A stretch of DNA of 33,054 bases, taken from Atractiella rhizophila (taxonomy: Eukaryota). The stretch is from contig MU271315.1 of the NCBI GenBank assembly GCA_021432655.1, forward strand, positions 62,001 through 95,054. Direction: 5' to 3'. Of this stretch, positions 1,449-25,832 are shown piece by piece (within the stretch, counting starts at the first letter, position 1; each line of letters opens with the position of its first letter). The position numbers and the translations under genes were made by a program. A model generated the notes under the pieces. The model worked only from the letters and a program-made list of their open reading frames with translations, searched no databases and was not told where the DNA came from.

Positions 1449-4400
1449 GTGTATCGCCCTCATCAGCGCGGTTAGCATCACGACCACGCTCATTGAGACC
1501 CGGACAGTGAGTATTTACCACTGTGTTCAGGTTTGAAGGATGCTGAAATTTGGGCTGTTAATGTAGAATATCGAAAGAATGAGAGAAATGTCACGTTTTG
1601 TCTGCGACGTTGCTGTTCTACGAAAGGGTTCCTGTGAGCGTTTTCATCTCTATTACGGATCGATCAGACCACTGAACGACTTTAGGGCAAACAATTCCCT
1701 CAACCGCCCTTGTTCCTGGAGATCTGATCGACGTGGCGCGAGCAGACTTTCACACAATCCCAGCTGATCTTGTTCTGCTCTCTGGCGAGGCGATTGTTAA
1801 CGAATCAATGCTCACCGGAGAATCAGTACCCGTCCCCAAGGTATCAATAGAGCAGCCTCATATTTTCAGAGAATTGAGAGAGCGGCCGGGCGAATTGTCA
1901 CCCGAAGCCAGTCGACACGTCCTTTACAGTGGTACGAGGGTTGTGCGGATGAGAAAGAGCGGAAATGGATATGAAGGCGAGGCTGTTGCAGTCGTCCTGC
2001 TCACGGGTATACCTTCTTTGTTTGGACAACGTCATGCTAAATGCCGAAATAGCTTTCAACACAACTAAGGGTGCTTTAGTTCGCTCGATGCTCTTTCCGA
2101 AGCCCATGGGGTCCGTGGTTACGGTCATCTAATTGTGTGCTTATTTCGTCTTAGATTCAAATTTTACCGGGACTCTTTTCGTTTCATCGGAGTCTTAGCG
2201 GGAATAGCTGGCCTCGGTTTTATTGTCAGCTCCATCAGATTTGTGGAAATGGGTGTAAGCCGAGCCTTTCTCTCTGCTTAGATGGATCGATGAGAGTTGC
2301 TTCAGATTAAATGGTCTACTATTGCCAAACGAGCAGGCGATCTGGTAACGATCGTCGTACCACCTGCTCTACCAGCAACCATGTCCATCGGGACGACGTT
2401 TGCAATCGCACGGCTGCGAAAGTTGGGCATCTTCTGCATTTCGCCGAACCGAGTAAACATTGGTGGCAAAATCAATATAGTCTGCTTCGACAAAACGGGC
2501 ACCCTGACAGAGGATGGGCTAGATGTTCTCGGAGTGCGCAGCGTGGATCGAAGCCACAGTCGCTTCAGTCAGATGTTTACTGACATCGAGGATGTGCCCA
2601 TATTCGGTGCAGCCGATTCTAAAACTCCCCTCCTGCACGCTCTGGCTACTTGTCACGCTTTGCGAGTCGTAGATGGAACCATCGTCGGAGACCCATTGGA
2701 TCTGAGGATGTTTGAGTTCACGAAGTGGACGTTGGAGGAGGGCAAGGAGCCTCAGCCACCTCGGGCTTCAGTGGAGGATAGAAGGGAGACTGATCGCATT
2801 GAAAGAGGAGTGGGAAAACCTGGAGGCGTCCTTAAAAAAGTTCCGGAGCGAGTCGCGACTTTGGTTCAACTGGTGGTTCGTCCACCAGGAGGAGAGCGCT
2901 TTCAACTCGAAGATGCTATCAAAGGGGCCGGCAAGAAGGTGCGCCTCTCTGATATCTACCTGTCTATTCTCAATGTGACGATAGAGAGCGCATTTCCTCG
3001 AACTTGGTGTCATTCGAGCATTCGACTTCGTCTCGGCTTTGCGCCGCATGACCGTACTTGTAAAGAAACTCAAGTCCCAGAGCGTAGAGGTGTACACAAA
3101 AGGAGCTCCGGAAGTCATGGCGGAAATCTGCGACAGGAGTACTCGTGCGTGCATTTAGTCACCTTGACGCTGTTGTTGATGCATTCTAGTGCCTCATGAT
3201 TATGATGAGATCTTGTCCGAATACACTAGGAAAGGATTCAGGGTCATTGCGGTCGCTGCCAAAAGCGTTCCTGGGCTAACTTGGCTGAAAGCACAACGGA
3301 TGAAGAGGTTTGTAACCTTGACGCTTCGCTGGATGCGTCTTCCTTACCGAGTGTCCAGGGAACAAGCTGAATCCGATCTCCGATTCTTGGGACTTATCGT
3401 CTTCGAAAATAAGCTGAAACCGGGAACAGAACCCGCCATCTACTCTTTGCGCACCGCCCACATTGCCTGTCGAATGTGCACTGGCGACAATATCCGAACA
3501 GGCATTAGTGTCGCGCGCGAGTGTGGGATGATATCCGAAGGCGCTCATGTCTATCTGCCGTCGTTCGTGAGAGGTAGGTACCAGCTTTTCTGTCAACACC
3601 TACTGAATGAAATCAGGTGGTCCTGAGGATCCGGAATCAGTTATTTCGTGGACTGATGTGGATCGCCCTCGCAAACGACTTGATCATTACAGTCTTCGGG
3701 TGGGTTGTGACCGTTCGATCAACCCTCACTGATCTTGTATTCAGCCGGTGACTGAGTACGACGCAGATGACCAGGAGAGTGCAAGCGCCTTCTCTTTAGA
3801 GTCAAATGGGGAATCTTCTCCGTACCATTTGGCTATCTCTGGAGATGTTTTTCGATGGATGATTGATTATGGTGCTCGAGAGACCCTTCACCGAGTGCGT
3901 CCTTCGTCAACGGGAGCAGAACGTGTTTAAAAGCTTTCTAGATGCTGGTGAAAGGCATCGTGTACGCTCGGATGTCACCAGATGAGAAGCAAGAACTAGT
4001 TGAAAAGTTGCAAGGATTGGGTTACGTTACGAGCTTTTGCGGTGATGGCGCAAACGATTGTGGTGCACTCAAAGCAGCAGACGTTGGAATTTCACTATCA
4101 GAAGCAGAAGCATCTGTTGCAGCCCCATTTACCAGTCGAGTTGCGGACATTTCGTGCGTCCTGGAAGTCATCAAGGAAGGTCGAGCTGCTCTCGTCACTA
4201 GTTTTAGTTGCTTCAAGTTCATGTAAGTCCTAATCTCTATTTCTCTACCTGCCCTCACGCTACTTAGGGCTCTCTATTCGCTCATCCAATTTACTACTGT
4301 CACGATTTTGTATTCCATGGCTTCTTCGCTAGGCGACTTCCAGGTAAGTGCCGATCGGTCTGACAGACTCACTCTAAGGTTGAGACAGTTCTTGTACATC

Positions 4401-5171
4401 GATTTATTCCTCATTTTACCCCTCGCTGTGACAAGTAAGAGCTCTCTTTGTGCGACGATCAAGCTGATACTTCACAGTGGGACGAACGGATCCATTCCCT
4501 CGACTTGTACCCAAGCGACCAACCGCCAATCTTATATCGAAGCATGTCTTGACATCGCTTATAGGACAAATCATCATCACATCTGGTTTTCAGCTCTTCG
4601 TTTTTCATTACGTCCGCTCTCAATCTTGGTAAGCGCCCACTTCATTGAAAGACCGAGGTAATTTGACCACCAGGTACAATGCCTTGCACCTTGTGGCAAA
4701 ACCGGACGATTTGGAAATCGCAAGTTTCGAAAATTCGAGCTTGTTTCTGGTCTCGTGCTTCCAGTATATCCTCGTCGCAGCCGTATTCTGTGTGGGACCT
4801 CCATATCGTCAGCCTCTCACTACCAATGGTAAGGAGCCTCCTGAGAACGAAGCCACTATGTCTGACGTCAATTCCCAGGTGCTCTGGTCGCTGTGATGAG
4901 TGGTTTGGTCCTAGCCAGTCTTTACATCTTGCTGGTGCCAACCAGTTTCATTTATTACATTCTTGAACTCGTCATTTTCCCTCGCCAATTCCGTTCCGAA
5001 TTACTCCTCCTTATCGCAGTAGACTGTGGTCTTTCGTGGATCTTCGAAGTTTGGGCGGCTGCAAGAGTGGCAAAGTTCATTGGAAATAGCATCAAAGCGT
5101 GGCGACGATGGCGAGGGACGCGCAAATCGGACGGACGTCTATACAAGAGCATTGAACGTGACTTGGAATAG
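1449..5171 (+). CDS. YPK9: 5'-truncated tandem copy of the P5B ATPase (TM2 onward: A, P, N domains and C-terminal TMs)
   Basis: Begins [18 protein letters not shown] after intron 1402-1448; contains [13 protein letters not shown] (P5B), DKTGTLT, TGDN and [11 protein letters not shown]; no N-terminal exons or promoter visible. Confidence 0.85.
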
Positions 5172-5215
5172 CACTCAATGACGGTATATATACCCTAAGG
5201 AAGGTCATACAAGTG

Positions 5216-7520
5216 CTATAGACTACCCAAATATGCCATTAACTGGTCGATTATAGACTTTTGATCTTCTGCTTCTTCGCCCATGCCATTCTTGTATTCC
5301 TCAAGTATCTTATTGACGTCTTTGAAGTCTTTTCCCTTCCGTCTCAAAAGCATCTTCACGTGTTCCCGTACCTGCAATAAATGTAAATGTAATTTGCAAA
5401 GCTAGAAAGGAACCACCAACCCCATCATCTTCCATCACTATCCAAGCAATGATGTAGTTTATAAGTTGAAGCGAAAATAAACCTCCTTCCAGTCGTCGAA
5501 GGTATATTTCATCCTCATCCAATTCTACATCTTCCGAGTTCTTGAGCTATAGGTGCTTTGGTTACTGGAGCCTTGTGAAAGGGAGAGTACGAACAGAGCT
5601 GATCTCATTTTCTTTTGCAGTTACAAGGTTCTCCCAGTTCTCCCGCAACTCTAACAGCTGGTCAACCTTCTCCAAATCTTTCTCCACGAATTTTGCCAGT
5701 AAGCGAATACGAGGAGTAGAGTCGGACTCCAGATTGCTCAACAGGGAGGACAGGATTGAAAGGATGTGTTCTTCGTCTTCACCTCTCGATTCTGACTTTT
5801 TCGAGTTCTAGCCGTCACGTCGTCAATGACGGAGGGTGGCGCAAGAAGTATGAAAAACCGACCTTTCCCATAAATGCCGAAAACAACGTCTTCAAGCCGC
5901 GTACATTGACGAAGCGATGACAGAGTTCAGTCCCGTCTGGACCTGATAGAGCGTGAGAGAGGACCTTGATCGCGCGGGTTCGAGCCATTGCCTTCTCCCT
6001 GTACAGAATATCAGGAGATACTCAATGGCAAAGATTAAGCGTACATCATCATCATGACCATGAGCTCCACTCCTTCCGCGTCCATAAAAGCCTTTTTAAT
6101 GGGATACGGATGGAGAGCTGAGCAAAGGCAATCGAATAGATTCTCCACGTACTCCGTCTCATCACCGTCAACTGGATCACGTTTTCGATAGGCTGAAAGA
6201 GCGGTCAAGACGGCATCTACGCCTTGTTCTCCCCATTTCTGCAGCGCCTTCTCTCGCTTCTCCTCGTCCTCCAGACCGACGGACTGGAGCAAGATGGCGG
6301 TCAGCTCAGCGACATAGAAACGGTTTTGGTTTTCGTCTGCAGTAGATTTCTTCTTTTTGAGCTGCTTGAAGGTGAAGGAGAGGAAGGACTCGTGAGTTAG
6401 GAGCTTATAAGAGATTGTTGGGACGACAGAGAGAAGTGATTCGAAGAAAGCTGTTGTACAGACAATTAGACACGTAATCAAATAAATAGTACATACATAA
6501 CGTCTGATAGATTCCTTTGCGCTCCGTTTCTTCTTCTGGGTTCAGTCGACCTAGATTGTCAACTAGTAAGTCGAGGATTGAAAGGTCTAACTGCTCGCAG
6601 TTCAACAAGTGTTTAGCTGAAACCATATAAAAGGCGTACCAAGCTGTTGACAAGGGCTTTGAATGCCTCCACCTTCTTTTCTTCTTCATCTTCCTCCTCA
6701 TCTCCCACATCCTCATCCAGCAGCTCGTCCAAGACGTCTACGACGGTGCAAGCAATATCCACGTTCTCATGTGTCAAGAGCTGTGTTAAGGAATCCACCG
6801 TCTTGAGTCTGATCATTTCAGGATAGTATTGAGTTGGTGACTGCGTGAGAAGTAGGAGAGAACGGAGCGCTTGCTCCAACGCGAATTCTGAGTCCACAAA
6901 CCTACACCAAGTCTGAGGAAAGTCCATCAGGATAAAGCCACACGCACTTTGGGGGATCGTTAGGAAATTTGGACCGCATATTATTATTTTCATTGATGGC
7001 TTTCTCCAAATTGAGCAGGTGTCTCCGCACTCCAACAACATTGAGCTGTTCAGGCTCTGCAGTCTCGTTCGGCGCAGTGTCCATGATGTCCAATATTCCT
7101 TTCTGCGTCGAATTCAAGCCTCCGCCACTAAGCATCACTTCATCTCAATTCCCGAAAGAGTGTAGTGTCAAGAAAAGGAGCTCACTAAAACCTGCCCTCC
7201 TCGTCCTCTTCAGCATAATAGTCGGCATCATTCCCCGGAGCAAAGTCTCCACCAGACGGAAACTCTTCGTCTTCCTCCTCCTCTTCTACCATAGTTACTT
7301 TACGCGGTCCTGAAACATTCCCACTCCCATTTTGTTTTGACAACTCGTTTCCTCCACCAGGCTCTTCCAGACGTGGGCGGCTGTTTTTGAAGTCGGGAAC
7401 AGTTGGTGCTTCGAGTTTTCGCTTGTGTGGTAGAGGAGGTAGCTGTTTCCATTATGCGCATGGTCAGCGAGAGAAATTGGGGGAAGGAGAGCTCGCCTTG
7501 AAGATATCCCTCGGATCCAT
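5216..7520 (-). CDS. CTNNBL1: Beta-catenin-like protein 1 (Prp19/NTC-associated spliceosome factor), multi-exon
   Basis: MDPRDIFK|LPPLPHKRKL..DFAPGNDADYYAEEDEEGRF; RSKFPNDP; FVDSEFAL; LLTHENVDIA; EYVENLFDCLCS; YLRRLEGGLFSLQ. Confidence 0.92.
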
Positions 7521-7613
7521 TGCAACGCGTTTCGTGGTTTGCCCAGATTTGGCACTGTAAATCTAACTAAGCTCCTTCGAGCGAATTAGAGAGTTAACTA
7601 CCAAACGACCAAG
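7521..7613. promoter_or_regulatory. Very short divergent intergenic region (CTNNBL1/ARPC3), putative bidirectional promoter
   Basis: 93 bp between opposing start codons. Confidence 0.65.
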
Positions 7614-8483
7614 ATGCCCGTGAGTTGCACTCTTTGCACTTTTCCATGCTCTTATGAGATTAGGCTTATCATTCCGCGTATAACGATGCTACGGAGTACC
7701 TCCAAATGGGAAACATGTCCATGTTGCCCCTGCGAACCAAGATCCGCGGCCCCGCTCCACCCCTTGGTCTGTCCCTGTCTCATCCCTTCAATTCCTCAGC
7801 TGAGGCAGGTCTAGCGAGTCCTTCTGATCAGGACATCGTCGATGAAGCCATTGAACTCTTTCGCATCAACGCACTCTTCCGGAATTTTGAGATCAAGGTG
7901 TGCTCGTCGCCGCCTCCTTTCGCAGCAGCGTGACTTTGAATCCCGAACTAATCGCTTTGTGGTGATAGGGAGGAGCAGACAGAGTCCTCATCTACCTGAT
8001 CATGTTTATTTCCGACTGCCTGACCAAGATCGCATCTCCACCTGCTAAAGGATGGTCTGCCAATGAGGCGACTAAGCAACTGACAAGTTATGCCGTAGAT
8101 AACTTCAGGTTCAGTGTTCGTTTCATCAACTCTTGCGGATGCTGACTGGACACTTTTAGTTTACCCGGAGAACCTGGATTCCCATTGAACAATCTCTACC
8201 AAGCCCCAGCCACACGTCCCGATGCTGGTATCTTCTTCTCGCCCTCACATTTTAACCTACTCACGGATCTTTGTGCAAGATAACCTCCGCCAATACCTCT
8301 TACAAGCGAGGCAAGAGACAGCTATTAGACTGGTCGCCCGAGTATACGACACTCCTGATGGGAAACCGAGCAAGTGGTGGATGTGCTTCCAAGTTTGTCT
8401 TCTCCAACGTAATTGGAGACCTGCACACTGATAGTCATCGGGAACAGAAACGAAAGTTCATGGGAAAGAGCCTGACCAGCTAG
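7614..8483 (+). CDS. ARPC3: Arp2/3 complex 21 kDa subunit (ARPC3/Arc18); 6-nt first coding exon
   Basis: MP|AYHS..LPLRTKIRGPAP..DIVDEAIELFRINALFRNFEIK..KPSKWWMCFQ|KRKFMGKSL. Confidence 0.96.
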
Positions 8484-8800
8484 ATATGTTACAGTAAATA
8501 GGACTTGATGCGAATGAAATGTATGAGTGATAAACGATAAACGATGGCGTTTGTTCTGGAGGCGGTGCAAGGTTCACTAAGGTTTGTGAATGAGAATTGG
8601 ACTGCGTTCCCTCTTATTTAGGGAGAGAGGTCGCTACCTCTTGGTACATACATCGAATGAGATTGCTGAGCCCTCTGAATTTCCCTTCGAGAACCATTGT
8701 TGGATTCGGAATAGGACAGGCACTTACGAGTAATGTGCCTTAACGCGGGCGAACGGCCGGTGTCGGTATCTTCGAAGACCCCGCACGCCCCTCCTCCACA

Positions 8801-8817
8801 GCAGTGGATATAAAGGC
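8801..8817 (+). promoter_or_regulatory. TATA box of alcohol oxidase A
   Basis: GCAGTGGATATAAAGGC about 90 bp before the ATG, identical to 11941-11957 upstream of the paralogue. Confidence 0.7.
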
Positions 8818-8899
8818 CAGGCGGTCTCCTTGGCTGACTTTTTCCTCGTTCAAGTTCACGCTCCGAGCGCTGAAGAGTTGGACAATCATAAGGCCGACT

Positions 8900-11277
8900 A
8901 TGACCTCCCCATTTTCGCCGTCTGAAGTCGAGACGGCTCAGGCCATCTTCTCCGGAGTGTATACCCCCTTCCCTACTGATGCTGCAAAGACAATCTTGGA
9001 TAATTTGGCTACCGCCGCTTCTCAGGCATCCATTGGTGGCCTCAATATGATCCTTAAAGCGCTTGGGACTAGGCCGGGGATGCTGCTCTTGACGGGACAC
9101 AACAAGTCAGGATGGAAGGAGCTTTCGCCTGATGAGAGCGAAGCAGTGCTCTTGGCTTGGGGTAAGTTGAATTGGTTCTAGGTGATGGAAAACGAACAGT
9201 ATTGATGTTCTGAATGCGCGTGGAAATAGGAAAAGGTCGAATTCCGCTGCTTCGACAGCTCTCGAACACCTTCGCTCAACTCGCAAACGCGCACATGTAT
9301 TCCTCAGTCCCGGAAGCCATCACCCCGACCTCATATCCTTATCACTCCGACAATCCCTCATTCATGTCCTCTCACGCACGGGACTCCTCTTTCGTCGTCC
9401 CCACTTTCACTCCTGCCATTGCTCCTTTTGAAACTGAAGTCTTGGTCATCGGAACCGGAGCTGGAGGAGGTGTCACTGGAGCTCATCTCGCAGAGACGGG
9501 CCATAAGGTGCTCTTCGTGGAGAAAGGAGCGTACACGGAGTGCAATTCGCTGTTTACGAGCGAGCGGGAGGCGTTCAATAACCTATTCGAAGGACGAGCT
9601 TTTACAGCTACGGAAGAGGGAACAACAACGATTCTGGCCGGCGCGACGTTGGGTGGTGGTACAACGGTGAACTGGAGCGGATCACTGTCGCCGCCTAGGT
9701 GGTTAAGGGAGAGTTGGAAGAAAAAAGGGATCGACTGGGCTACTACAAGACAGTTTCAGGAGAGCGTCGATGCCGTGTGTGGAAGATTGGGAGTGACAAG
9801 AGATGTGGAACATGGCAGGGCCAATCAAATGTTGATTGAAGGTTCGCTGCCTTTTCTGCCTGCTTGTTGTTACTAGGTACCTGAGATTGCGAACACAGGT
9901 GCTAGAAAGGCAGGATACGACGCCAACGTCCTGCCTCAAAACTCAGCCGGGAAAGCCCACGGCGTACGTATTGTTCCTTTTCCGAACGCAAATTTGAGCC
10001 ATTGGAGAATAGTGCGGGTTTTGCACATTTGGTTGCCCATCCGGCACCAAGAATGGAACAGTCAACACCTATCTGAGCGACGCGAATAAAGCTGGTGCCC
10101 AGTTCCTTCTTGAGCACGAAGTCGAGCGCGTACTGTTCTCCTCCTCGGTCGACCCTGCATATCCCTCTCAGGATGCAACAGAGAAGGAGCTTGAGCAATT
10201 CTCTTACTCCCCCTGGTACAGGCGCACACGGGCTGTTGGCGCGGTTGTGAAGGACAAGGAAGGGAAGAAGAAGGTGATTGTTGCCAAGAAGGGAGTGATC
10301 GTGTCCGCTGGCGCACTTCATTCCCCTGCAGTCTTGTTGAGAAGTGGAATTAAGAATCCCTGGTTGGGCAAGAACCTGAGACTTCACCCTTCCGGTTTCG
10401 TGATGGGATGGTTTGATGAGGATGTCAAGCCATGGGAGGGAGACATCATGACTGCTGTGCGTCGTTCCCTCGCCTCAAAATAGCTTTTTGTGATAACATG
10501 GCTCCAAGCATGTTACGGAGACCGCAAATCGCGATGGAACGCATTACGGGTCCAAAATCATAACAATGCAAACGTCGTTGATGATTCACTCCACTATCGT
10601 TGGCTTCAAAAAAGGACGTGAAGCTCACAAGAAAGATGTGCGTTGCAAGCTACCTCTTTCTGTCCGATTCCATCTCTCGTACTGACTGATGCTATCTGAA
10701 CAGATGGCGAATTACAAAAATTGCCTCAACTTCTGCATAATAACCCGAGATCGCGACGGTGGCACTGTATCTCTGGCTCCAAACGGCTCGCCAGTCTACA
10801 ACTACACACTTTCAGCATATGATGGCGTGTCGCTCATGGAGGGGCTTATCGCTGCGGCCAACATCCAATACGCGTTAGGAGCGAAGCGAATAAGAACAAC
10901 CCAGATTTGGGTGGATGACTTTGAAGGTGGAGACGATGCCGCCTTTGAATCCTGGAAGCAGAAGGTGAGAGAGGCAGGGCCAACGGAGTCGAAAATTGGG
11001 AGCGCACATCAAATGGGCACCTGCAAGATGGGAAAAAGCAGGAAGGAAGGAGTGACGGATCCTAGGGGTGCCGTTTGGGGAACTCAAGGACTTTATGTCG
11101 CAGACACCAGCTTGTTTCCTGATTCCTCGGGGGTATGTTTTCAGTTCCTCTTTCGCTGAAACTACGCTCATCCGATTGCAGGTCAACCCCATGATTACCT
11201 GTATGAGTGTTGCTCACTTCGTCTCACGCTTCATCGAGGAGGATTTGAGGACTGTTCAGTTAGGAGCTAAACTCTGA
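8900..11277 (+). CDS. Long-chain fatty alcohol oxidase/dehydrogenase (GMC oxidoreductase), copy A, PTS1 AKL
   Basis: VIGTGAGGG FAD motif, LAGATLGGGTTVNW, CGFCTFGC, GKNLRLHP, SAHQMGTCKMG, SGVNPMIT; ends LGAKL*. Confidence 0.93.
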
Positions 11278-11940
11278 CAAGTTTTTACGGTAGTAACATG
11301 AAAGTGTGACAGTGCAAGTCTACGGGTCTGTCGAAGCTAGCACGAAGTAATAGCAGAAAGGGTCAGAAATAAGGAAATAGGGCTTCACGCTTCAGCATCC
11401 TGCATTCGTAGTATAGTGTCGCACTTGGATAGAAATTTGACACCGTATATTAGCCTAAAGTCCCTCAAAGACTACACTCATACTCATACCAAGTTGAAGG
11501 AAGTCGGCTAGCGTTGAGCCCTTAGCCAACTCATCGAAGATTGGGAAGGAGTACTTTTCCCTCACGAGATTCGGATTTTCGCGGTCGACTGGAGTTGAAA
11601 CCTTCAAGATTCTATAATGAACAGAAAATAATGCACTACCGAGCACTTGCTTCTTTGCTTGGTCTCCCTCCGGCTACCTCCTCAGCAGACTGACTCCGCC
11701 GTTAGTCCCGCGCTTGCAAACTCATAATTTAACTTATCTAACGAAAGGGAGAAATATTCGTTCGCAGGCGATGGGTAGTTTGCCTAACTTGAACTTCCCA
11801 ATCTACTAACCTTTACCTCTCACCCCTCCAAAACGTGATAGGTATACCAACAGAAAGTTACAACGAGTTACAGCAATGCTTCAATGTGGCGGGACAACGC
11901 TCGGTATTGGCGTCTTGAAGGACCTCGCAGGACTCCGCTG

Positions 11941-11957
11941 GCAGTGGATATAAAGGC
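11941..11957 (+). promoter_or_regulatory. TATA box of alcohol oxidase B
   Basis: Same 17-mer as 8801-8817. Confidence 0.7.
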
Positions 11958-12020
11958 GACTGAGTCCCGTTCGTCCTTCCAGAGCTGAAACGGTCGACAA
12001 TCAAGAAAGTAGGAACGAAA

Positions 12021-14383
12021 ATGACTTCCCCATTTTCGCCGTCTGAAGTCGAGACAGCGCAGGCCATCTTCTCAGGAGTGTACACCCCCTTCCCTACTGA
12101 TGCTGCAAAGACAATCTTGGATAATTTGGCTACCGCCGCTTCTCAGGCATCCATTAGGGGCCTCAATATGATCCTTAAAGCGCTGGGGACTAGGCCGGGG
12201 ATGCTGCTCTTGACGGGACACAACAAGTCAGGATGGCAGGAGCTTTCGCCTGATGAGAGCGAAGCGGTACTCTTGGCTTGGGGTACGTTGAATTACTTCT
12301 AGGTCATGGAAAATGCAAACTGTACTGATGATCTGACTGTGCGTGAACATAGGAAAAGGTCGAATCCCCATGCTTCGAAAGCTGTCTAACACCTTCATTC
12401 AACTCGCAAATGCACACATGTATTCCTCAGTCCCGGAAGCCATCATCCCGACCTCATATCCCTACCACTCCGCCAACCCCTCGTTTATGTCCTCGCACGT
12501 ACGCGACTCCTCTTTCGCCATCCCTACATTCACACCTGCCAGTACACCTTTTGAAACTGAGGTCTTAGTCATCGGGACTGGAGCAGGAGGAGGTGTCGTT
12601 GGGGCCCGACTGGCAGAGGCGGGATATAAGGTTTCATTCGTAGAGAAAGGAGCGTATAGGGACCGCAATTCTCTGTTTACAAACGAGCGGGAGGCGCTCA
12701 ACCATCTCTTCGAAGGCCGAGCTCTCGTAGCTACCCAGGAGGGAACCACAACGATACTAGCAGGTTCGACATTGGGAGGAGGCACGACAGTGAATTGGAG
12801 CGGATCACTGTCCCCTCCTTGGTGGTTACGAGAAGGCTGGAAAAAGAAAGGGATCGAGTGGGCTACTACAAGGCAGTTTCAGGAAAGCGTTGATGCTGTA
12901 TGCGAAAGGGTGGGAGTGACGAGGGATGTGAAACATGGACGCGCGAATCAGATGTTGATCGAAGGTTCGCAGCCCTTCTCGCTCACATTACGCTAGACGC
13001 TAAAGGTCTTGAATATAGGTGCAAGAAAGGCAGGATATGATGTTAACGTCCTTCCTCAAAATTCAGCTGGAAAGACACACAAAGTAGGTATTTTCCCTTC
13101 TATACATACAAACTTGAGCGATTGAGAACAGTGCGGGTTTTGCACCTTTGGCTGCCCCTCCGGCACCAAGAATGGAACAGTTAACACCTATCTAAGTGAT
13201 GCGAATAAAGCTGGTGCCAAGTTCTTGCTTGAGCACGAAGTCGAGCGCGTACTATTCTGCTCCTCCACGGATCCTACATATCCCTCTCTCGAAGCAACGG
13301 AAAAGGAGCTTGAGCAGTTCTCTTACTCTCCTTGGTACGGACGTACACGAGCTGTTGGCGCGATTGTGAAGGACAAGGAAGGGAAGAAGAAGGTGATTGT
13401 TGCCAAGAAGGGAGTGATCGTGTCCGCTGGCGCGCTTCATTCGCCTGCAGTCTTGTTGAGAAGTGGAATTAAGAATCCCTGGTTGGGCAAGAACCTGAGA
13501 CTTCACCCTTCGGGTTTCGTGATGGGATGGTTTGATGAGGATATCAAGCCATGGGAGGGAGACATCATGACTACTGCGTGTCTTCTCCTTAACGTCAATC
13601 GTCTGTATTAACACATTGCCCATAGCATGTCACGGAGACGGCGAATCGCGATGGAACGCATCATGGATCCAAAATTATAACAATGCAAGCGTCATTGATG
13701 TTTCACTCTACCATCGTTGGTTTCAGAAAGGGACGTGAAGCTCACAAGAGTGACGTGAGTCGCAGCCACATTGTCTATCTGACCACTTCTCTCAATTATG
13801 CTTCCTGAACAGATGGCTAATTTCAAGAACTGCCTCAATTTGAGCGTAGTAACTCGAGATCGCGACGGTGGCACTGTGTCTCTGGATCCAAACGGTGCGC
13901 CGATCTACAACTACACACTTTCAACCTACGACAGCGTGTCGCACATCGAAGGTCTGATTGCTGCTGCCAACATCCACTATGCCTTGGGAGCGAAGCGAAT
14001 AAGGACGACGCAGATTTGGGCGGATGACTTTGAAGGTGGAGACGAGGAGGCTTTTGAATCCTGGAAGCAGAACTTGAGAGCGGCGGGCACCGAGTCGAAA
14101 ATTGGCAGTGCACATCAAATGGGTACTTGCAAGATGGGAAAAAGCAGGAAGGAAGGAGTAACGGATCCTAGGGGTGCCGTTTGGGGAACTCAAGGACTTT
14201 ATGTCGCCGATACTAGCTTGTTTCCTGATTCTTCGGGGGTATGCTCCTCTTTTTTCCTCCGCTGAAGGTACGCTCAACTCGTTGTAGGTCAATCCCATGG
14301 TTACCTGTATGAGCGTTGCTCATTTCATCTCGCGTTTCATTGAGGAGGATTTGAGGACTGATCAGTTAGGAGCTAAACTCTGA
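12021..14383 (+). CDS. Long-chain fatty alcohol oxidase/dehydrogenase (GMC oxidoreductase), copy B, PTS1 AKL
   Basis: Same exon structure and motifs as copy A; needs a GC donor at 13576; ends LGAKL*. Confidence 0.88.
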
Positions 14384-14516
14384 TTGGTTTGTACAGTAAT
14401 AACAGGAAGGTGTGACAGTGTAGCTCTACAGGTTTGTCGAAGCCAGCGCGAAGTAATACCAAAAACACTAGGGAAACAGGATCAGCGTCGACAGCATTCA
14501 TAAATAATCTGCGATA

Positions 14517-16853
14517 TTAGTATCCTTCTAGCAATGCCCAAAACATCCTTGCTTTGACCGTCCAATTCCTGAGAGGACCTCTCATGACTTTTCCTTCAGC
14601 TTGTTCCATCCCTTCTCCTCTTTCCCCAATCAGCCATTCCAACCCTTGTCTCCCACATCCTTGTGCGACAGCCCACGCGCTAAAGACTGCCAACCTAACT
14701 TCACCTTGCTCTGGTTCCTTCTGCGCTCCTTCCGGTAAAGCGCCAGGCTGCCACTCATCATTTTTCAAGGTGCGAAAGTAGTACGACAGCGCGAAACTGA
14801 AGGCCCTATGCAGTCCCCAGTCTTGCGCAGCCCACACTGAGGCACCGTTTCCGATGTCCCCTCTCCAGTGCAAGGGGGAGTATTGCTGAATGCTTGCGTC
14901 CACAGTGGCTAGGTAGGTGAGAGCTTCGAGATCGAAGAAGGTATAGAAGAACGGAGTGGGACGAGCAAGCTCATGGACTAGGCCACCATTTGGAAGGATC
15001 CGTGAGGCGAGACCTCGCCCAAAGAAGTGTTCCCTGATGATCGCAGAAGCTTCCGGAGCTCTATTCATGCATATCAGAGCTGTGGATACCCTGCGGTTCG
15101 TTCACGTCAGGAGCAGTTCCGAAGTAGGAAGTCAGTGCCGCACACAGTGAGAAAGAAATCTTTGATGTTGTTTTTTCGTTTGAAAGTTTCTTTGCAGATT
15201 TCGTGGTTGAGCAGGAAATTTATGTGTCTGTCGATCCAAGGATAGAGGAAGTAGTGCGGTGAATATGGAGATGGAGGGGCAGGGAAGAGTGGGAGTACTT
15301 GAAAAATCAGGTTCAGGGGACGGAACTACAGTTGCGCGCATATGGCTTTGTCAAAAGGTGAACGCTTGCGAAAATGGGAACGAACGTGTAATCCACCTTC
15401 TGGACGACCCTTCCAATTGCCGTTTCGCCCAGGTATACATTGACCATACTGCAAGACATCAGTGATCCGGAGGTCGCTGTTATAAAAAGGACTAACCATT
15501 GTTTCTGGTTCCATACTTAATCATAGCATTCCCTTCAGAAACCCATCAGAAGCAAGATGAATTGACTCACTAAGTTTCCGGATCGTGAAAGAAGATTTTG
15601 AGAAGCCTGTAGGCTTTGTCAATAAACTGTCAAAAAATGAGCATGTCATTAAGATGATGGCCATGAAGAAATACAGTTGTGGCTCTTTGTTCATCGAACT
15701 GCATCCAAAAATGGTACGCCATAGCCAAATGATGCACTTTTGTACACATCTACTACATATCGTCAATCTCTTAGGTTCCCACTATATGAAGAGCTTACCT
15801 CTCCTAATTCTGACGCCTGCGTCGCATCCTTATAACAATCTGCCCAACAATTACCACTCTCTCAGAAGCACTACCACACAATAAGAAGTACCTTCGTCGC
15901 GCTTTCCCCTGCTCCCACCAGTATCGCGATCCCAGTCTACTGCAGTGGGCCAATCCACCCCTTCCGTTTCCCAGTTTGGATGGCACCTTTTATACTCATC
16001 TACTTGGGCTGGATCGGGGTGATATCCTGCTGCGAAGGAAAGGAAGTAATGCTTGCCTGCTCACAACGGAATTATCAGCACGGCTCACGAAGAGAAAATT
16101 TTGTCTGATCGAAAGACGGGCGTTCCCCAACAAAAGACGGTAGACGAATCACATCAAACACGCAACTGCTCTTGAACAATATTTTATAACAGCTATTCAA
16201 TAAAGCATAAGTTTTTCATGCCTTGTTCAGATGTTAATATTTCAGACTAGTGGCTGTAACATTCATCAATACTCGAGCACTCTCGTAGTGCTCCACAGGT
16301 GAGAAATGGAACATGAGAGCGCAAGAAAGTGCGTGCTTGAGAATGCTGACATAGCAAACTACTTTCACATCCTCCTCAAACCTCCTTCTAATTATCAACC
16401 ACCCATCCATGTTATGGCTTATTTTTGGTTTGGTAATACTAGGAGTCTTAAACGATTGTGGAACGTCAAGCTTTAGCGCCTATAGTATCGGATGCACGTG
16501 TTGCATGTTTCTTTCACAAGAGCTGCAAGGATGACTTGAAGGCTGCTTTATATGAAGGTAAATATAGGGAAGGTAACCAACTCACCGCCGGGGCTCCATC
16601 TCTTCGAAAACGTAACACTATAGCCCTGCTCCCTATCTGTCTCTTCCAGCACCTTCTTCGCTAAGTTCGTTATGAGTTTAAAAGCCACTGAATTCTTCTT
16701 CACCAACCCCGAATCTCTGAGCTCGATCAGTTTGGAAGGGTGGATGAACAGCTGAGGATTCGAGTGCGACTTCTTTGGGTCAGGGGGGAATGGTCCCGGG
16801 GCATGAACATGCGGCGGCAGATGGGGGTAACGAGGTGGCACCAGAGCAGCCAT
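14517..16853 (-). CDS. Alginate lyase family (PL5-like, alpha/alpha toroid) protein, divergent, multi-exon
   Basis: Spliced model: SPGGKHYFLSFAAGYHPDP; IFFHDPETYMEPETMYGQCIPG..GRPEG; KRKNNIKDFF; HELARPTPFFYTFFDLEAL. These follow the motif order of the Alginate_lyase family. Confidence 0.75.
16099..16229 (-). ncRNA. Candidate intronic H/ACA snoRNA (weak)
   Basis: UGAACAA/UUGUUCA stem, then AGAGCA (ANANNA H box), second hairpin, ACA+3 nt; 131 nt; lies in a 529-bp intron. Confidence 0.35.
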
Positions 16854-17136
16854 GGTCAATTCCCTTCCTTCGTCGTTCTGCTGCTCCACTGGCAGCAGCC
16901 ATTGGAAGTCGGTAGCGACATTTGCGACATTCTGCGACACACAAGGACAAACTTCCCGGCTTTCAACGTGTGTCAATCACCCGGTAAATGACAAGCAAGC
17001 GAGCCTGTTGAGGTAGCAGTTGCGGTCCTGGCTTTCGTGCGTCTGCCATAAAACTCTTGGAAGGCTCCTCAGAGTCGCTGAAAGATTTGACAGTGACTAT
17101 CTCGCACTAGCAACTCAGGCTTCCTCATCTACAACG

Positions 17137-18150
17137 ATGTCACTCGATGCTTTCCCCAAACACAACTCTCTCAAGCTCTCCTTTCCAATCCCTTTTGTCC
17201 TCCAAATCACAATTTCGCGTCCACCGTTGAACGCTTTCAACAAGCCTTTGTGGCTAGGCCTCAAAGACGTTGTCGATGTGGCAGCTACTCACCCCGATGT
17301 ACGAGTGATAGTCCTGCACTCAGCGAATCCCAAAATCTTTAGCGCTGGAATCGACGTGGCCGAGCTTGCTCAACTCGGTGGGCATATTGAAGGCAGCAGG
17401 GATCCGAGCAGAAATGCAGTGCTTCTCGAGAGGACTACGGCTGAGTTTCAAAATGCAATTTCTGCATTGGAGAAGAGTGATAAACCCATCATTGCCGCGA
17501 TCAATGGGGTGTGTATTGGTCTAGGTAGGTCACAGAGTTGGTTGCGCGTCATCTGAGAGGCTAATAGCGATGGAATCCAAGGCGTGGACATCGTCTCTGC
17601 TTGCGATATCCGTTGGTGCAGTGCAGACGCGAAGTTTAGCATCAAAGAAGCAGCGATGGGTCTCGCAGCGGATATTGGTACGCTGTCTCCGTTCCCAGAC
17701 CCCTTGGCGTCTAAAAAACTATCTATTTAGGCTCGCTCCAACGCTTTCCGAAGAAGGTAGGCAACGACTCGCTCGCGCGTGAATTGGTTTTCAGCGCTCG
17801 AGATTTCACTGCCGAGGAAGCTTCAAAGATTGGATACGTCAGCAATGTCGTTCCTGGTGGTCAAAAAGAGGTGCTTGCCGCCGCATTAAAGCTTGCTGAG
17901 AACATTGCGGGTGCGTCGATGTGCTCAGATAGTCTTAAAAGTTGTCTGATAAAGTCGTCCATATGTAGCCCTCTCACCTATTGCTGTCCAGGGATCGAAG
18001 AGGATCATGAATTATTCCATGAACCATTCGATCGACGAGGCGCTCCATTATCAAACGATATGGAATCAAGCCATGTTGCAGAGCGCCGATCTCAAAGAGG
18101 CCGTTACAGCTTTCTTGCAAAAAAGGAAGGCGACTTATGCAAAGTTGTGA
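17137..18150 (+). CDS. ECH1: Delta3,5-Delta2,4-dienoyl-CoA isomerase (crotonase family, ECH1-like), PTS1 AKL
   Basis: FSAGID, KPIIAAINGVCIGLGVDIVSACDIR, KEAAMGLAADIGSLQRFPK; ends KATYAKL*. Confidence 0.9.
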
Positions 18151-19045
18151 TTTCCCCTTGTGATAGGGACGTGCAGTGTATACGAAAGATATCCGAGAAT
18201 TGACTTTGCATTCTTCAGTCCTATTCTGTAGCGACAAGTGAAGTCAAGACTGTGTGGTCAAATTGGGAACCTCTGGAACTCTACTTCTCAGTACAGTTTA
18301 CCTTAAACTGACGCAATTTTGCTCATCCTGTTGCAGCCGAAAGATGACGTCTGAGTCACTCGGACAACTATCAATACTGTGACTGAGAAGTCGCTGAGGA
18401 TGCCATGAAGATGGGAACGAGCTCAAGTCTAACTGATCATTCCCTGCACTCTGGATTCTTATCTAAATCCAGGGGGTTCGAAAACCGATGTAACCCCATC
18501 ACACGGAACAGTATCGTTAATGTAACGAACTGCTTTCAGGCGTTTCAAGGTTTTTCAGATGAGTTTTGTGACATCTCTGATGCTATTTGTCGCCTTTTGT
18601 TATCGGGGGCTGCTATCTGCGCCTCCAGCCCTTAAAACCAGTTGCGTTTGAGCACTTGCCATGCCTCAAGTACTCACGCGAAGATGTTATAACGTCACAG
18701 GCCTCGAAGCTCGAAGTTTGTGACCTAGCTTGAGACAACGGATTCACACCCCGCAAGTCAAAAAACAAGTCAAAAAGGGGGTTTGTTGTCGATTTTCACT
18801 CAGCGTGGCTTCGGTTCCTTGCCAGTCGCACGATCAGATCGTTCTGGATCCCAACGCCACAAACTGGCGGGAAGGTTTCATCCAGTCGTTATATATTTGA
18901 ATGACGAACTCCTTTTCTTTTCCCGTCTCCCTTTCCTCTTCATCCCTTACTCTGACCATTATTTCCAGCTTCTAGTCTAGGCGAGTCGTTTATTGTAATA
19001 GTCGACGAGAATTGACGCCTCGGATAGGTTGCAGCCAAAGCCAAC

Positions 19046-21146
19046 ATGACAGGTGGCAACATGATTCCCTCGCCTCCTCCTTTCGTAGCTACCTCAGCAG
19101 CTTTTGCGTCTTTGTCTCTCCACCAAACCCAACTCTCCCCAGCTGTTTCGCCCCGGACGATTCCCAAGTCTCTGCGAGAAGACGAGGCAGAAGGATCGCA
19201 TATGAGGAAGAAAATCAGAAAAGTCGATTCCCTTCCCCAAGTCATTTCGTATGGTCATCCAGAAGAAGATTATCACGACATACATGCTCACGGTTTTGGC
19301 GCGAGTGGAGAGAACGAGCAGGCAACTCCCAAGACTCTTCGCTCTTCGTCGACCTTTCAACACTTTTCCTCATTTTCCAGTAGCCAGTCTAGTAGCTACT
19401 CAGCTTCTTACAACAGTGGTTCCGTCTCTCCCTCGTTTCCGACCTTCAGCTCTTCTGGTTCAATTCCTGGGTCGCTCAGTTCGACATCTTCCTTCTTCTC
19501 CAATGGAAATGTCTCAGCATCCACCAGCACCAGCTCTCTCGTATCCTCTCCAGCCCAATGCACGTCTCCCCTTCCAACTCATACTACCTTTTCTCCTCCC
19601 AGCTCTCCAGAGGAGCCTCCATCCCCACCCAGCTCTCCCTCCTCCCAACCAGACTGTACCTCCCTCCGCGCCATGACGCTCTCCGGCTACATTTTGCACC
19701 ATCTTTTCCTCTCCACATATACCATTGTCGAGGAACTCGGCTCTGGCGGCTTCGGATTCGTCGTCAAGGCGGTTCATAACGTGAGCGGTAGAGAGGCGGC
19801 CGTCAAGTTCGTGGTGAAGGAGAGGGTGACAAGGAGTGGATGGATCAAGGTTCGTGGATGGAATGGCAAAGGAATGAAACCCTCGGAGAACCAGAGGGAC
19901 GAAAGGAAAGTGCCAATGGAGGCGTACTTGCTGAGAAAGTTGAGACACCCTGGTATTGTGGAGTTCATAGATCTCTTCGAGGATGATGTTTACTTCTATC
20001 TGGTTCGACCTTCCCCTTTTTGGTCCCAATGCGTTGCATTGAAAACTGACAAGTCTGGATGGTGAACAGGTGATGGAATATCACGGTTCTCCATGGACCG
20101 CTAAATCTAAGCACGAGAACGGAGCCACATCTCCTCCTTCCCTCCCTCTGCTCGCCGCTTCCCCTAACAGCTCTCCAAAAAAGCCTCAACCTCAACCTCA
20201 ACATCAAGAGCAACCGTTCTTTGGTTCCTCGTTCGTCGACTACGCTGTCCCACCCACTTCTCCTAACGGTACAACACAATACTCTTACGATGCGATGCCC
20301 TCTTCTCCTCCCCCAGTGAAAGACGGCGCAACCCTCTTGGGCATCCCGAGACCCCCGTTGGCGACTCTCAGGAGGAGCAGCTGTGACTTGTTTGAGTGTA
20401 TCGAACAACATCAGATGTTGGATGAAGCCCGAGCAAGATTGATCTTCCGCCAAATCGTGGATGTGCTCTGTTACTTGCAGGAGCTGGGAGTGTGTCACCG
20501 AGATATCAAGGATGAGAATATAGTGGTCGACGATGAGTTCAATGTTGGCCCTCTCTTCACTACTTTCTCATAAATGCGATGGAGCTGATGTGAGATTGGT
20601 CTGAACAGGTCAAGTTGATTGATTTTGGAAGCGCCGTGATCTTCGAACCCAAAAAAGGATCGCCATACTTCAACAGGTTTTACGGGACCACCAATTTCGC
20701 TTCGTTCGTTTTCATCTCTTCTCCTTGTCCCTCATTCCCAGAGTCAATCCCGTTTCGATCTGGATAGAGCTGAAATCATGCGTGGGGAGCCTTATCAAGC
20801 GCCACCTGCCGAAGTTTGGTCACTTGGTGTCCTTCTCTCTATCCTACTCAACGGAGAGACTCCCTTTGCATCTGCGGCACACATACAATACGGTCCGTAG
20901 CATGCTTCCTTCGTTTGAGGTTTGGCTCACAAAAAAGGTTACATATGTCCAGGGAGGATGTGTCAACCGCGCGCAACTCTCAGCCGCGAAGCGTTAGACC
21001 TCATGCAAGGGTGCTTGACGGTCGACATAGAAAAAAGACTGACGGTGTGGCAAATAAGGGACCATCCCTGGCTCAAAGAGAGAGAACCCTTGAGTACACC
21101 GAGGTTGGGGATGACGACGCCGGGTACGAAGTCGAAGTTTATCTGA
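19046..21146 (+). CDS. Ser/Thr protein kinase, PASK/PIM-like (CAMK group), Ser/Pro-rich N-terminus
   Basis: ELGSGGFGFV, AAVKFV, VPMEAYLL, HRDIKDEN, DFGSA, FYGTTNFASAE, EVWSLGV. Confidence 0.92.
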
Positions 21147-23186: not shown

Positions 23187-25832
23187 TCATGATGGCATCC
23201 CCCGTGTTCCTCTACCTCTACCTCGAGGCGGCGGTGGAGCAGTCATGGCAGGTACGGTCTGCAAGGAGCCCGTTTGTTCAGCAGAGGGCCCTGCACCTTT
23301 AGCCTGCGCTGGAACTGGAGTACCTCTTCCTCTTCCCACACCTCTCAGAGCGCCTCTTCCCGGTGGAGTCGCTCTACCCGACGGCGCACCTCTACCACCA
23401 GGAACAGGAGTGCCTGAACCCCTCCCGATCGGTTTCTTGGGTGCGAGAGCTTCGAGCCTTTCCTGCTCCTTCTTAACCCGCTCTTTATCCAAACGATCCT
23501 TCTCAGCTTCATCCCACCTCGCTAACAAGTATCCAATGTCGGGAGCGCAGAGATATTTCTTGTTTGTCTGACCCATCACGTACATCGCTCGTCGATGGGG
23601 TTTTGGTAAGGTCGAATCGGGTTCTGGTTCGTTGAGAGGGTTCACTACACTTTGTGGAGGGTCGATGATGGCGATTTCTTGGAGGAAAGAAGGGGGAGCA
23701 CCTGCAAGGATCTACATTTCCGAATAAGTCCAAGGTTGTGAGATAAGGGGGACGACGGACATCGTACTCCACCTCTCCTAGCTTAAGCCTTACCCTCCCA
23801 CTTCGACGAACAATCAGTTCTCCAATCTGCCCACCCTCCGTGCATCCGACTACTTCGGCTGCCTTCGCTCCTTTTCTGTCATTCCACGCTGCCCCGATGG
23901 CAAGCAAGTCAGCACGAGCAAAAAGCGTTACGGCATACATACATGTTCCGGCACCAAAGCCGAATGGGCCATCTTGTGGAGCATCAGGATCCTCCTTCTT
24001 AACGACGCCAGCCGTGCGAGTAAGGAAGGAGCTGGAGGGATCCGCGATCTGAGAGGGCGAGGCGAAAACTGGGAATTCACGAGGGAATTGAAAGATGTAC
24101 AACCTCTCAGAATTCGATTCCTTCACCCAAATTTCAATGCTAGGAGCTCTCAAGAAAGGGAGGGACGAACAGGAAGTACAAAATCGTCAGTTAGGTCCTC
24201 CTCCGTTTTTGGGGTTAACTTCTTTTCCTCATCGACATCCATTCCAGAAACAGTCGTTGCCCTCCTACTCGTCTCTTTTGAATCTATCTCCATCGCCTCT
24301 ATGCTCTTCTTCACCTCTTCTCCCATTACCAATGCAGGGGTCGCCGTCCCAGAACCTTGCCAGCTTCCGGTTCCCTCGTCCTCATCTTCGAGTTTCACCT
24401 CCATCTTTCTCATTTTCTCGGCTCGCTCTTGTTCCCTCTTAGCCGCTTTCCGTGTTTCTCGATCTCTCATCTTCTCAGGATCAGGAGGAAGAACCATAGG
24501 TGCCATCTCATCTTCGTCACCAATCTCGTCCAAGTCTACCACGTTCGGAACTCGCCTCCTGGTCGTCCGCTCATCATCTTCCTCTGCATCGGAATATCCG
24601 GAATAGTCCGATTTGTATTCATCCGAATCCGCCTCTCCGATCTTCGACGGTGCAGACATGCCAACTCCGAACGCTATACCTCGAGGCGTAGAGCGACCGC
24701 TGCCTGAACAAATCAAGTAAATCACCATCATCTAGGAATGGGAGAAGAGAGACGTACCGCCCATCAATGGCCCTTGCGCCATCGGTCCACTAGCGGTCAT
24801 GACGATTTCCCCCCGTCCTCTTCCCCTCCCTCTCCCCCTCGAAGCATCGAAGTCCCCCCTACCACGCCCACGATCACGATCGCCTTCCGTTCTCCCCCTC
24901 CCGCGCTCTCCTCGTCCTCGTCCTCTCCCGCGCTCTCGAGAATCGTGCGAGCCGAATGCCGTATCTTCCTAAGGAGCGATAGACCCCTTCGGACCTTGTT
25001 GAGCAGCTAGGTGGAAGGAGGACGTACACGTTTGACGGAAGGTCTATAAAGAAGGTCGGTCAGGTTGCGTTCCTATAACGACAAAGTTGAGTTCAAGACT
25101 CCACTCCAACTTCAAAAACAAACAGCAACCTAGAAATGTGTTTTAGAAAATATGTAGATCCATCCAGGTCATCACCCCAAGAACCGCCCTGCTCCCCTTC
25201 CTACAGAGAGAGAAGGGCTCTAAAGGCAATGGTTTGTACAGGATCCTTCCAATCAATGGAGTTCGCTCTTGCGCTCCGTCTGGTCGGCAACAGCGTGTGC
25301 CCTAGTTCTTCTCGTGGAAGAAAGGACAGAGTGCCAGGCCGGAATTAAGAAACGCGATGCAGCAGCATGTTCTCTCTAAGTCATTTGTATGCCTCAGCAA
25401 GATAAACTCCTTCTTTCTGACACAATTGAATCAGCAGTTTTGGAGCATAACCAAGGGATAACTAGTTTGATTGTCATGTCTGGTACGTGATGTAAAATAA
25501 ACCTGACGAACTCTCGCCCTTCTCAAACCTGCAGAAAAGACGAAGAGTAAGATGCAAGAAACTGCTCACCCCTCTCCGCTTCCACTAGCCTCCACCCCTT
25601 TCCCCGCCTCACTCTGTTGCAAGGCCAGTTTCCTAACCACCATATTCGGCATGAACTTCATCCTCGTCGTCCCCACTCTGCTCGGCTGCCCTGCCATCGA
25701 AGTGATGGGAGCGTTAAGCAGGGCTGAAGTCCCCGTTGGCGCTGGACCTGACGTTGGAGTCGCCGTCCCTGATGTTGAGCCTGAAGGTGTGGGACGCCCG
25801 CGACCGCGTCCGCGGGGCTGAGGAGCTGACAT
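23187..25832 (-). CDS. RPC4: RNA polymerase III subunit C4 (Rpc53/POLR3D)
   Basis: RMKFMPN, MTASGPMAQGP, LYIFQFPREFP, GQIGELIVRRSGRVRLKLGEVEYDV, YVMGQTNKKYLCAPDI; 16-nt microexon at 25028-25043. Confidence 0.9.
25150..25357 (-). ncRNA. Intronic box H/ACA snoRNA, predicted guide for LSU rRNA Psi2975 (yeast numbering; snR42 target)
   Basis: 3' hairpin with lower stem GGAUCC/GGAUCU, upper stem CAUUGCCUUUAGAGCC/GGUUCUUGGGGUGAUG, ACA 14 nt below the pocket top; guides ACCUG and GUACAAAC pair with rRNA CAGGU-U-A-GUUUUAC; 5' hairpin GCGUUUC/GGAGCGC followed by a degenerate H box AGAGCG. Confidence 0.8.

Follow-up and report, generated by a model that had tools for sequence, protein, structure and literature searches.

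A predicted box H/ACA snoRNA in the first intron of the RPC4 gene of Atractiella rhizophila, with a putative target equivalent to yeast 25S U2975

In fungi and animals, intron-encoded box H/ACA small nucleolar RNAs (snoRNAs) occur one per intron on the sense strand of a host gene, with a hairpin-hinge-hairpin-tail fold, an ACA box 3 nucleotides (nt) from the 3′ end, 14–16 nt between box and pocket, and ends of the type left by exonucleolytic trimming. Their hosts are usually genes for translation or ribosome biogenesis, and H/ACA families diverge fast. Here we report on a 208-nt element with the same organisation, located on the minus strand (25357–25150) of a 33,054-nt stretch of DNA from Atractiella rhizophila (the window; GenBank assembly GCA_021432655.1, contig MU271315.1, positions 62,001–95,054; coordinates below are those of the window). 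The element lies in the first intron of a gene for RPC4, a subunit of RNA polymerase III (Pol III), and this host sets it apart from intron-encoded H/ACA snoRNAs in general. Yeast snR42, the closest described counterpart, is presumably an independent gene, whereas the element described here is intronic in a protein-coding gene and has an H box without the trailing A. The two share the RNA class, the mechanism and the predicted target, U2975 of yeast 25S ribosomal RNA (rRNA) (Saccharomyces cerevisiae snR42, family HACA_33 in Canzler 2018). That survey records HACA_33 from Taphrinomycotina and from Saccharomycotina, with none reported for Pezizomycotina.

The same survey, whose species set includes an ‘Atractiellales sp’, describes very few H/ACA snoRNAs recovered by homology search in Pucciniomycotina and an apparent loss of about 86% of H/ACA families in several of its members, which was put down in part to how hard short bipartite guides are to trace by homology (Canzler 2018). 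A full-text literature search combining Atractiella with snoRNA returned this paper only, and searches on basidiomycete, Cryptococcus and Pucciniomycotina snoRNAs turned up no report on H/ACA snoRNAs of this lineage.

The stretch 25357–25150 is very probably an intron-encoded box H/ACA snoRNA on the strand of its host gene; that it belongs to this class and also guides pseudouridylation of the U2975-equivalent position in the large subunit (LSU) rRNA is, taken together, probable. The anatomy set out in an earlier reading of the window from sequence (the original prediction) was supported by the fold, the box-to-pocket distances and an RNA contig from a relative. Specifically, when folded alone and unconstrained, the stretch gave a minimum free energy (MFE) structure of −72.0 kcal/mol with the hairpin-hinge-hairpin-tail layout and an internal loop in each hairpin (Table 1), so that the two-hairpin fold claimed for the host strand is recovered by plain energy minimisation. 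The 3′ hairpin has a 9 × 8 internal loop holding two transient pairs, with a long upper stem above it, and is followed by the tail ACAUAU. The distances from the base of the upper stem to the box are 15 nt in the 5′ hairpin (A25284 to A25269) and 14 nt in the 3′ hairpin (A25169 to A25155), the rule for H/ACA RNAs being about 14–16 nt between the pocket top and the H or ACA box. The ACA at 25155–25153, 14 nt from the pocket top, and the pocket strands (ACCUG at 25169–25165; 5′ strand at 25240–25232) thus stand as predicted, as does the degenerate H box AGAGCG, which lies at 25269–25264, 15 nt from the top of the 5′ pocket. The minus-strand structure contains 15 G-U among its 64 pairs, and these would be mismatches on the plus strand, where the best fold (−59.2 kcal/mol) is 12.8 kcal/mol worse and has no H/ACA layout. 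Folds of the rest of the intron (25569–25358 and 25149–25044) gave short hairpins only, with no H/ACA layout that would point to a second snoRNA.

RNA evidence was sought in public sequencing runs. Of 16 runs listed, 3 contain half or more of the sampled words and 4 are recorded as RNA. The examination covered 4 of the 16 (X4, X7, X10 and X12), including one of the four recorded as RNA. Run X12, a random-primed soil metatranscriptome, yielded one 208-nt contig (mean word depth 11.7) that corresponds to exactly 25150–25357, aligned from first to last base with eight differences, no gaps, no loose ends and no flanking intron. Its ends lie 3 nt past the ACA and 2 nt before the basal stem. A close relative thus appears to make a discrete RNA, represented by this one contig, whose ends are where they should be in an H/ACA snoRNA that has been trimmed back to its protein-covered part. 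Both ends coincide exactly with the ends proposed beforehand (25150 and 25357); the 3′ end follows the rule of ACA plus 3 nt, and the exact agreement at the 5′ end may be partly luck. Six of the eight differences were listed (Table 1), those near the contig ends not being reported. Four of these six fall inside about 19 nt of the hinge, counting the one at position 5 of the H-like box, and the three pocket strands that lie far enough from the contig ends show none, the 5′ strand of the 3′ pocket (25240–25232) being unchanged. This pattern would fit H/ACA constraints, as a weak conservation test at 96% identity. A 4-base-pair (bp) hairpin was also predicted within the hinge (25260–25248, minus strand); in the relative, changes without compensation fall in two of its pairs, and it is probably not functional.

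How often such geometry arises by chance was estimated by folding the 208 nt that end 3 nt after each of the 971 ACA trinucleotides on both strands of the window. For the 3′ hairpin, the filter called for a lower stem (4 bp or longer) whose end is no more than 3 nt from the box, loops of 4 nt or more on each side, an upper helix of 4 bp or longer and a spacing of 13–16 nt between this helix and the box, and it was repeated for an upstream ANA. The 3′-hairpin geometry was found at 25 of the 971 sites and that of both hairpins at three, namely the candidate, a plus-strand site at 12054 and a minus-strand site at 26686. The relaxed filter described here is the one relied on; with an upper helix of at least 5 bp, 14 and 2 sites pass, the candidate only via a different ANA. 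Among the three sites with both hairpins, the candidate alone has a conserved rRNA match. The other two were rejected as H/ACA RNAs, their rRNA matches being G-U-rich and confined to single species and the site at 12054 lying inside an open frame. The plus-strand stretch of the latter (11917–12059) has an H-like box of the AGAGCN type and no conserved rRNA match. Finally, the window contains a single copy of the pattern AAAC-N55-75-ACCTG-N9-ACA, which combines the 3′-pocket strands with the box, where shuffling predicts 0.08 (a copy arose in 8 of 100 shuffles).

Several observations weigh against the assignment to the H/ACA class. The fold energy is not significant (z = −1.68, with 10 of 200 shuffles folding as well; z = −1.29 for the slightly different stretch 25345–25145), and the MFE structure of the whole 526-nt intron swaps the 3′ hairpin for long-range pairs. 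The strict ANANNA motif is absent from the hinge, AGAGCG having no A at its sixth position in either the window or the relative. For the expected discrete RNA of about 200 nt, the evidence amounts to a single contig of a single run, which stems from a relative and not from A. rhizophila itself; contigs reveal neither strand nor abundance. Two of the eight differences lie near the contig ends, where they could alter the 3′ guide strand, the ACA box or the 5′ pocket, and the change at 25321 breaks a pair of the 5′ apical stem without compensation. An Rfam search of the whole window at gathering thresholds gave no match, and a search at E values up to 10 (4227 models) gave no H/ACA family: 801 nt returned three chance-level matches (two to long non-coding RNA regions, one to a C/D small RNA piece) and 228 nt returned one match, again not to an H/ACA family. 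Among JGI metagenome contigs, no record contained the two 3′-pocket strands searched as a two-block pattern, and a 19-base stretch retrieved five records, in which the likeness ends at 19–20 matched bases and of which about four were expected at random by our estimate. No diverged orthologue was therefore found in this collection that would have allowed a covariation test.

The H box is the most visible departure from the canonical anatomy. As a putative H box, AGAGCG would nevertheless lie inside the described variation, since positions 1 and 3 were highly conserved, position 2 was G in nearly 80%, and the trailing A was a more variable position in a survey of 2255 fungal H/ACA snoRNAs (Canzler 2018). 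A stable intron piece or another small RNA, for example a fragment of a longer non-coding transcript, might resemble an H/ACA RNA without binding Cbf5, and the non-canonical H box, the lack of an Rfam match, the weak fold z-score and the two other ACA sites among 971 that show the same geometry by chance are all consistent with such a look-alike. We regard it as very unlikely in view of a contig that ends exactly 3 nt after the ACA and 2 nt before the basal stem, box-pocket distances of 14–15 nt on both sides, strand-specific G-U pairs, differences in the relative that are concentrated in the hinge, and a pocket that matches a known modification site. The same contig bears on the possibility that nothing functional is present, the fold having arisen by chance in a long intron and the contig coming from contaminating DNA or unspliced pre-mRNA. 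RNA libraries may contain DNA, contigs cannot show transcription and the metagenome collection held no orthologues, but a contig from DNA or pre-mRNA should extend into the flanking intron or end arbitrarily, whereas this one covers the 208 nt end to end, and the intron has roughly ten times the length of the adjacent ones, as would fit a retained cargo. Such an origin is highly improbable.

The pockets were compared with rRNA from other sources. Rfam was run on 3 of 48 retrieved contig loci, chosen by length (L037, L055 and L024); all three are ribosomal DNA (rDNA) units with eukaryotic small subunit (SSU) and LSU rRNA, L037 and L055 also contain 5.8S rRNA, and L024 is the most divergent. Every U was scanned in the canonical geometry, in which the arms run contiguously from the pocket top, the U and its 3′ neighbour stay unpaired and each arm has 3 bp or more, with G-U pairs allowed. 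For the 3′ pocket, CAGGU-U-A-GUUU was the only conserved canonical match, found in all three rDNA units at both the 8-bp and the 7-bp threshold, with nine Watson-Crick pairs (5 + 4) and no G-U. One extra match occurred in the SSU of the divergent L024 only, and a mismatch-tolerant search gave only single-species matches elsewhere. The pairing had originally been put at 5 + 8: the five pairs of ACCUG hold, and the other arm amounts to four contiguous pairs. The claim that GUACAAAC pairs fully with GUUUUAC was not borne out, in that AAAC (25235–25232) alone is contiguous; beyond it the guide base C25236 faces a U, and three more pairs form only if C25236 is bulged.

The numbering of the target was checked on L005, a fragment (eukaryotic LSU model positions 2922–3401 in Rfam) in which the 16-base rRNA motif quoted in the original prediction was found. 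At an offset of +2912, eight of eight modified yeast nucleotides (Um2921, Gm2922, Psi2923, Psi2944, Am2946, Cm2948, Cm2959 and Psi2975 in the table of Sloan 2016) fall on fitting letters (U, G, U, U, A, C, C and U, respectively), and this was the sole such offset among 42 tried. The target U thus equals yeast 25S U2975, and the prediction that the element targets the snR42 site agrees with both the complementarity in the three rDNA units and the numbering. Tables in two reviews (PMC5699541 and PMC8307265) give snR42 as the guide for U2975, and in one of them the position is marked as belonging to the peptidyl-transferase centre and as shared with human.

A genuine H/ACA snoRNA could still match U2975 by coincidence, its true target being another RNA (a species-specific rRNA segment, a small nuclear RNA or other) or the snoRNA being an orphan. 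This is unlikely, and the evidence bearing on it is mixed. The pairing is only 9 bp and can be extended only through a bulged guide base, which counts against U2975 as the target. Random pockets (3000) find 0.66–0.88 sites of at least 9 bp per rDNA with G-U pairs allowed and 0.014–0.015 with Watson-Crick pairs only. The scans covered rDNA units from eukaryotes other than A. rhizophila, the 5′ pocket has no conserved target, and seven orphan H/ACA families were counted among fungi (Canzler 2018). On the other hand, all nine pairs are Watson-Crick and in canonical register, the match is the sole conserved one in all three rDNAs even at 7 bp, the mismatch-tolerant search added nothing shared between species, and the match lands on one of 45 known yeast sites. 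Scaled by these 45 pseudouridines among 1550–1824 U, the chance of hitting a known site is, by our own arithmetic, between about 0.02 (G-U allowed) and 4 × 10⁻⁴ (Watson-Crick only) per pocket.

The length of the duplex can be set against work on yeast guides. The predicted 5 + 4 pairing has at least 8 bp with at least 3 on each side, the extent called for in De Zoysa 2018, where 8 bp is the reported minimum, and in Kelly 2019; the shortest natural yeast guide duplex is given as 4 + 4. According to Kelly 2019, an snR34 substrate cut to 4 + 5 bp was still modified, about fourfold more slowly. In that 3′ hairpin, as predicted here, the 5′ side of the pocket contributes 4 bp and the 3′ side 5 bp; the snR34 case is an in-vitro truncation of a longer natural duplex, whereas here 4 + 5 would be the full contiguous natural duplex. 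A nine-bp duplex would therefore be short but within the working range.

The 5′ pocket (UUAAUUC/ACCAGAC) is without a conserved canonical target in the three rDNAs. The strict scan gave one 9-bp match in one of the three and 8-bp matches to CUGGU-U-N-GAG in two of the three, and the mismatch-tolerant scan gave single-species matches only. One of the three rDNAs has, in its SSU, a complement to 7 nt of this pocket's 3′ strand, which was rejected, the other arm being unpaired. Single-guide snoRNAs in which only the second hairpin is functional form the commonest fungal H/ACA class (15 of 50 families; Canzler 2018).

As regards the relation to snR42, the lack of any Rfam match means that kinship between the two, if any, is undetectable by those models, the presence of an snR42 model in Rfam being unconfirmed. 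The description as a functional counterpart of snR42 stands insofar as the predicted target is the same; no homology to any Rfam family was detected. On pocket complementarity, the element would best be regarded as an isofunctional guide and not as a member of the snR42 family.

The rDNA-bearing contigs have features of their own. Eukaryotic rRNA occupies 356–6687 of L037, 53–6838 of L055 and 312–5655 of L024, on contigs titled as bacterial metagenome-assembled genomes (Chitinophagales, Saprospiraceae and Proteobacteria), which are likely contaminant contigs, and the SSU gene of L055 carries a group I intron (5472–5734). L005 is an IMG/VR ‘viral’ contig whose opening part (1–361) is the 3′-terminal portion of a eukaryotic LSU rRNA, and another IMG/VR contig, L001, carries 14 tRNA genes in about 15 kb (4817–19949).

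The host gene occupies 23187–25832 on the minus strand and encodes an RPC4 homologue. Two of four open reading frame (ORF) pieces tested matched the RNA_pol_Rpc4 domain (Pfam PF05132) with E values of 1.1e-11 and 1.1e-05, the weaker match scoring 26.1 bits, slightly below the curated cut-off of 26.5. The exon ORFs also match a public 468-aa protein annotated as an A. rhizophila hypothetical protein (P0001), which itself carries PF05132; in a tblastn comparison with the locus, identity was 98.9% over its last 177 residues and lower in other blocks because of introns inside the alignment. The match thus agrees with an origin of the window in this fungus (Basidiomycota, Pucciniomycotina, Atractiellomycetes) or a very close strain of it. 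Exon boundaries at the 5′ end of the gene were read from the sequence and from frame logic (Table 1), and the coordinates and length of intron 1 given in the original prediction (25569–25044; 526 nt against about 50 nt elsewhere) hold, the neighbouring introns measuring 59 and 54 nt. In runs X4, X7 and X10, contig coverage is confined to exon 1, except that one contig from X7, from a relative with 4–6 differences, is spliced from 25572 to 24968 with 18 letters between and the frame kept. This corresponds to exon 1, the 16-nt microexon and exon 3, with intron 1 skipped; 4 of the 18 bridging letters differ, and the peptide read by eye is W-P-S-V-K-R against G-P-S-V-K-R here, P-S-V-K-R being kept. 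The long intron 1 and the microexon are therefore real in a transcript of a relative. The snoRNA cargo would account for intron 1 being about ten times longer than its neighbours. The public protein P0001 starts at an internal ATG of exon 3 (24800), with which exon 1 and the microexon are in frame. Since these are also spliced onto exon 3 in the contig of the relative, the public model is probably N-terminally truncated by about 150 residues and lacks the first two exons.

Table 1. Coordinates of the predicted snoRNA and its parts, of the 5′ part of the RPC4 host gene, and of the listed differences in the X12 contig.
Feature	Position	Strand	Description
Predicted mature box H/ACA snoRNA	25357–25150	minus	208 nt; from MFE layout and X12 contig ends
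5′ hairpin, lower stem	25355–25349 with 25277–25271	minus	7 bp, two of them G-U; MFE
5′ pocket, 5′ strand UUAAUUC	25348–25342	minus	half of a 7 × 7 internal loop in the MFE structure
5′ pocket, 3′ strand ACCAGAC	25284–25278	minus	MFE; A25284 is 15 nt from the AGA of the H-like box
H-like box AGAGCG	25269–25264	minus	A1, G2 and A3 canonical; sixth base G, not A
Hinge spacer	25263–25247	minus	apparently unconstrained; three of the six listed X12 differences
3′ hairpin, lower stem	25246–25241 with 25161–25156	minus	6 bp; MFE
3′ pocket, 5′ strand UGUACAAAC	25240–25232	minus	AAAC (25235–25232) predicted to pair with rRNA GUUU after the unpaired U-A
3′ pocket, 3′ strand ACCUGGAU	25169–25162	minus	ACCUG (25169–25165) predicted to pair with rRNA CAGGU, 5′-adjoining the target U
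ACA box	25155–25153	minus	3 nt before the RNA 3′ end; 14 nt from A25169 (pocket top)
RPC4 exon 1	25832–25570	minus	263 nt; ATG at 25832; open frame; not in the public protein model
RPC4 intron 1 (snoRNA host)	25569–25044	minus	526 nt; donor GTGAGC, acceptor TATAG
RPC4 microexon	25043–25028	minus	16 nt; from frame logic; between introns 1 and 2
RPC4 intron 2	25027–24969	minus	59 nt
RPC4 exon 3	24968–24758	minus	211 nt
RPC4 intron 3	24757–24704	minus	54 nt
X12 difference	25265		position 5 of the H-like box, an N position of the H box
X12 differences	25258, 25254, 25249		hinge spacer; no pair of either hairpin affected
X12 difference	25244		3′ lower stem; A-U to G-U, pair kept
X12 difference	25321		5′ apical stem; U-A to C-A, pair broken

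From this anatomy a course of events can be proposed whose steps are established snoRNA biology, from which we infer protein binding, the processing route and the modification itself. Cbf5, Nop10, Nhp2 and Gar1 would bind both hairpins while the intron is still nascent, and splicing and debranching would be followed by exonuclease trimming back to the protein-covered RNA, which would keep 2 nt ahead of the first stem and 3 nt beyond the ACA. In the nucleolus, the 3′ pocket would bind pre-LSU rRNA, ACCUG pairing with CAGGU and AAAC with GUUU, and hold an unpaired U-A where the upper stem begins, at 14 nt from the ACA; there Cbf5 would turn the U into pseudouridine. The modified U would be the equivalent of yeast 25S U2975, the snR42 site in the region of the peptidyl-transferase centre. 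The 5′ hairpin, for whose pocket the scans found no target, would be needed for the ribonucleoprotein particle.

The proposed link between rRNA modification and the supply of Pol III, by way of the RPC4 host, found no support, as a position in the intron implies co-transcription and not regulation. A wider version is speculative and quite unlikely as a whole. In it, Pucciniomycotina, rather than having lost most H/ACA snoRNAs, would keep conserved rRNA pseudouridines through guides that have diverged beyond recognition or evolved independently, an H box AGAGYG without the last A would be typical of the lineage, and RPC4 hosting would couple guide output to transcription of Pol III, the polymerase for 5S rRNA and tRNA. 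The understanding of how H/ACA guides work is unchanged by the present element, which appears real but ordinary. A fungal subphylum from which homology searches recovered very few such guides (Canzler 2018) gains with it a well-supported H/ACA snoRNA whose predicted target is a conserved site close to the peptidyl-transferase centre, which suggests that the apparent loss of H/ACA snoRNAs in Pucciniomycotina is at least partly a detection problem.

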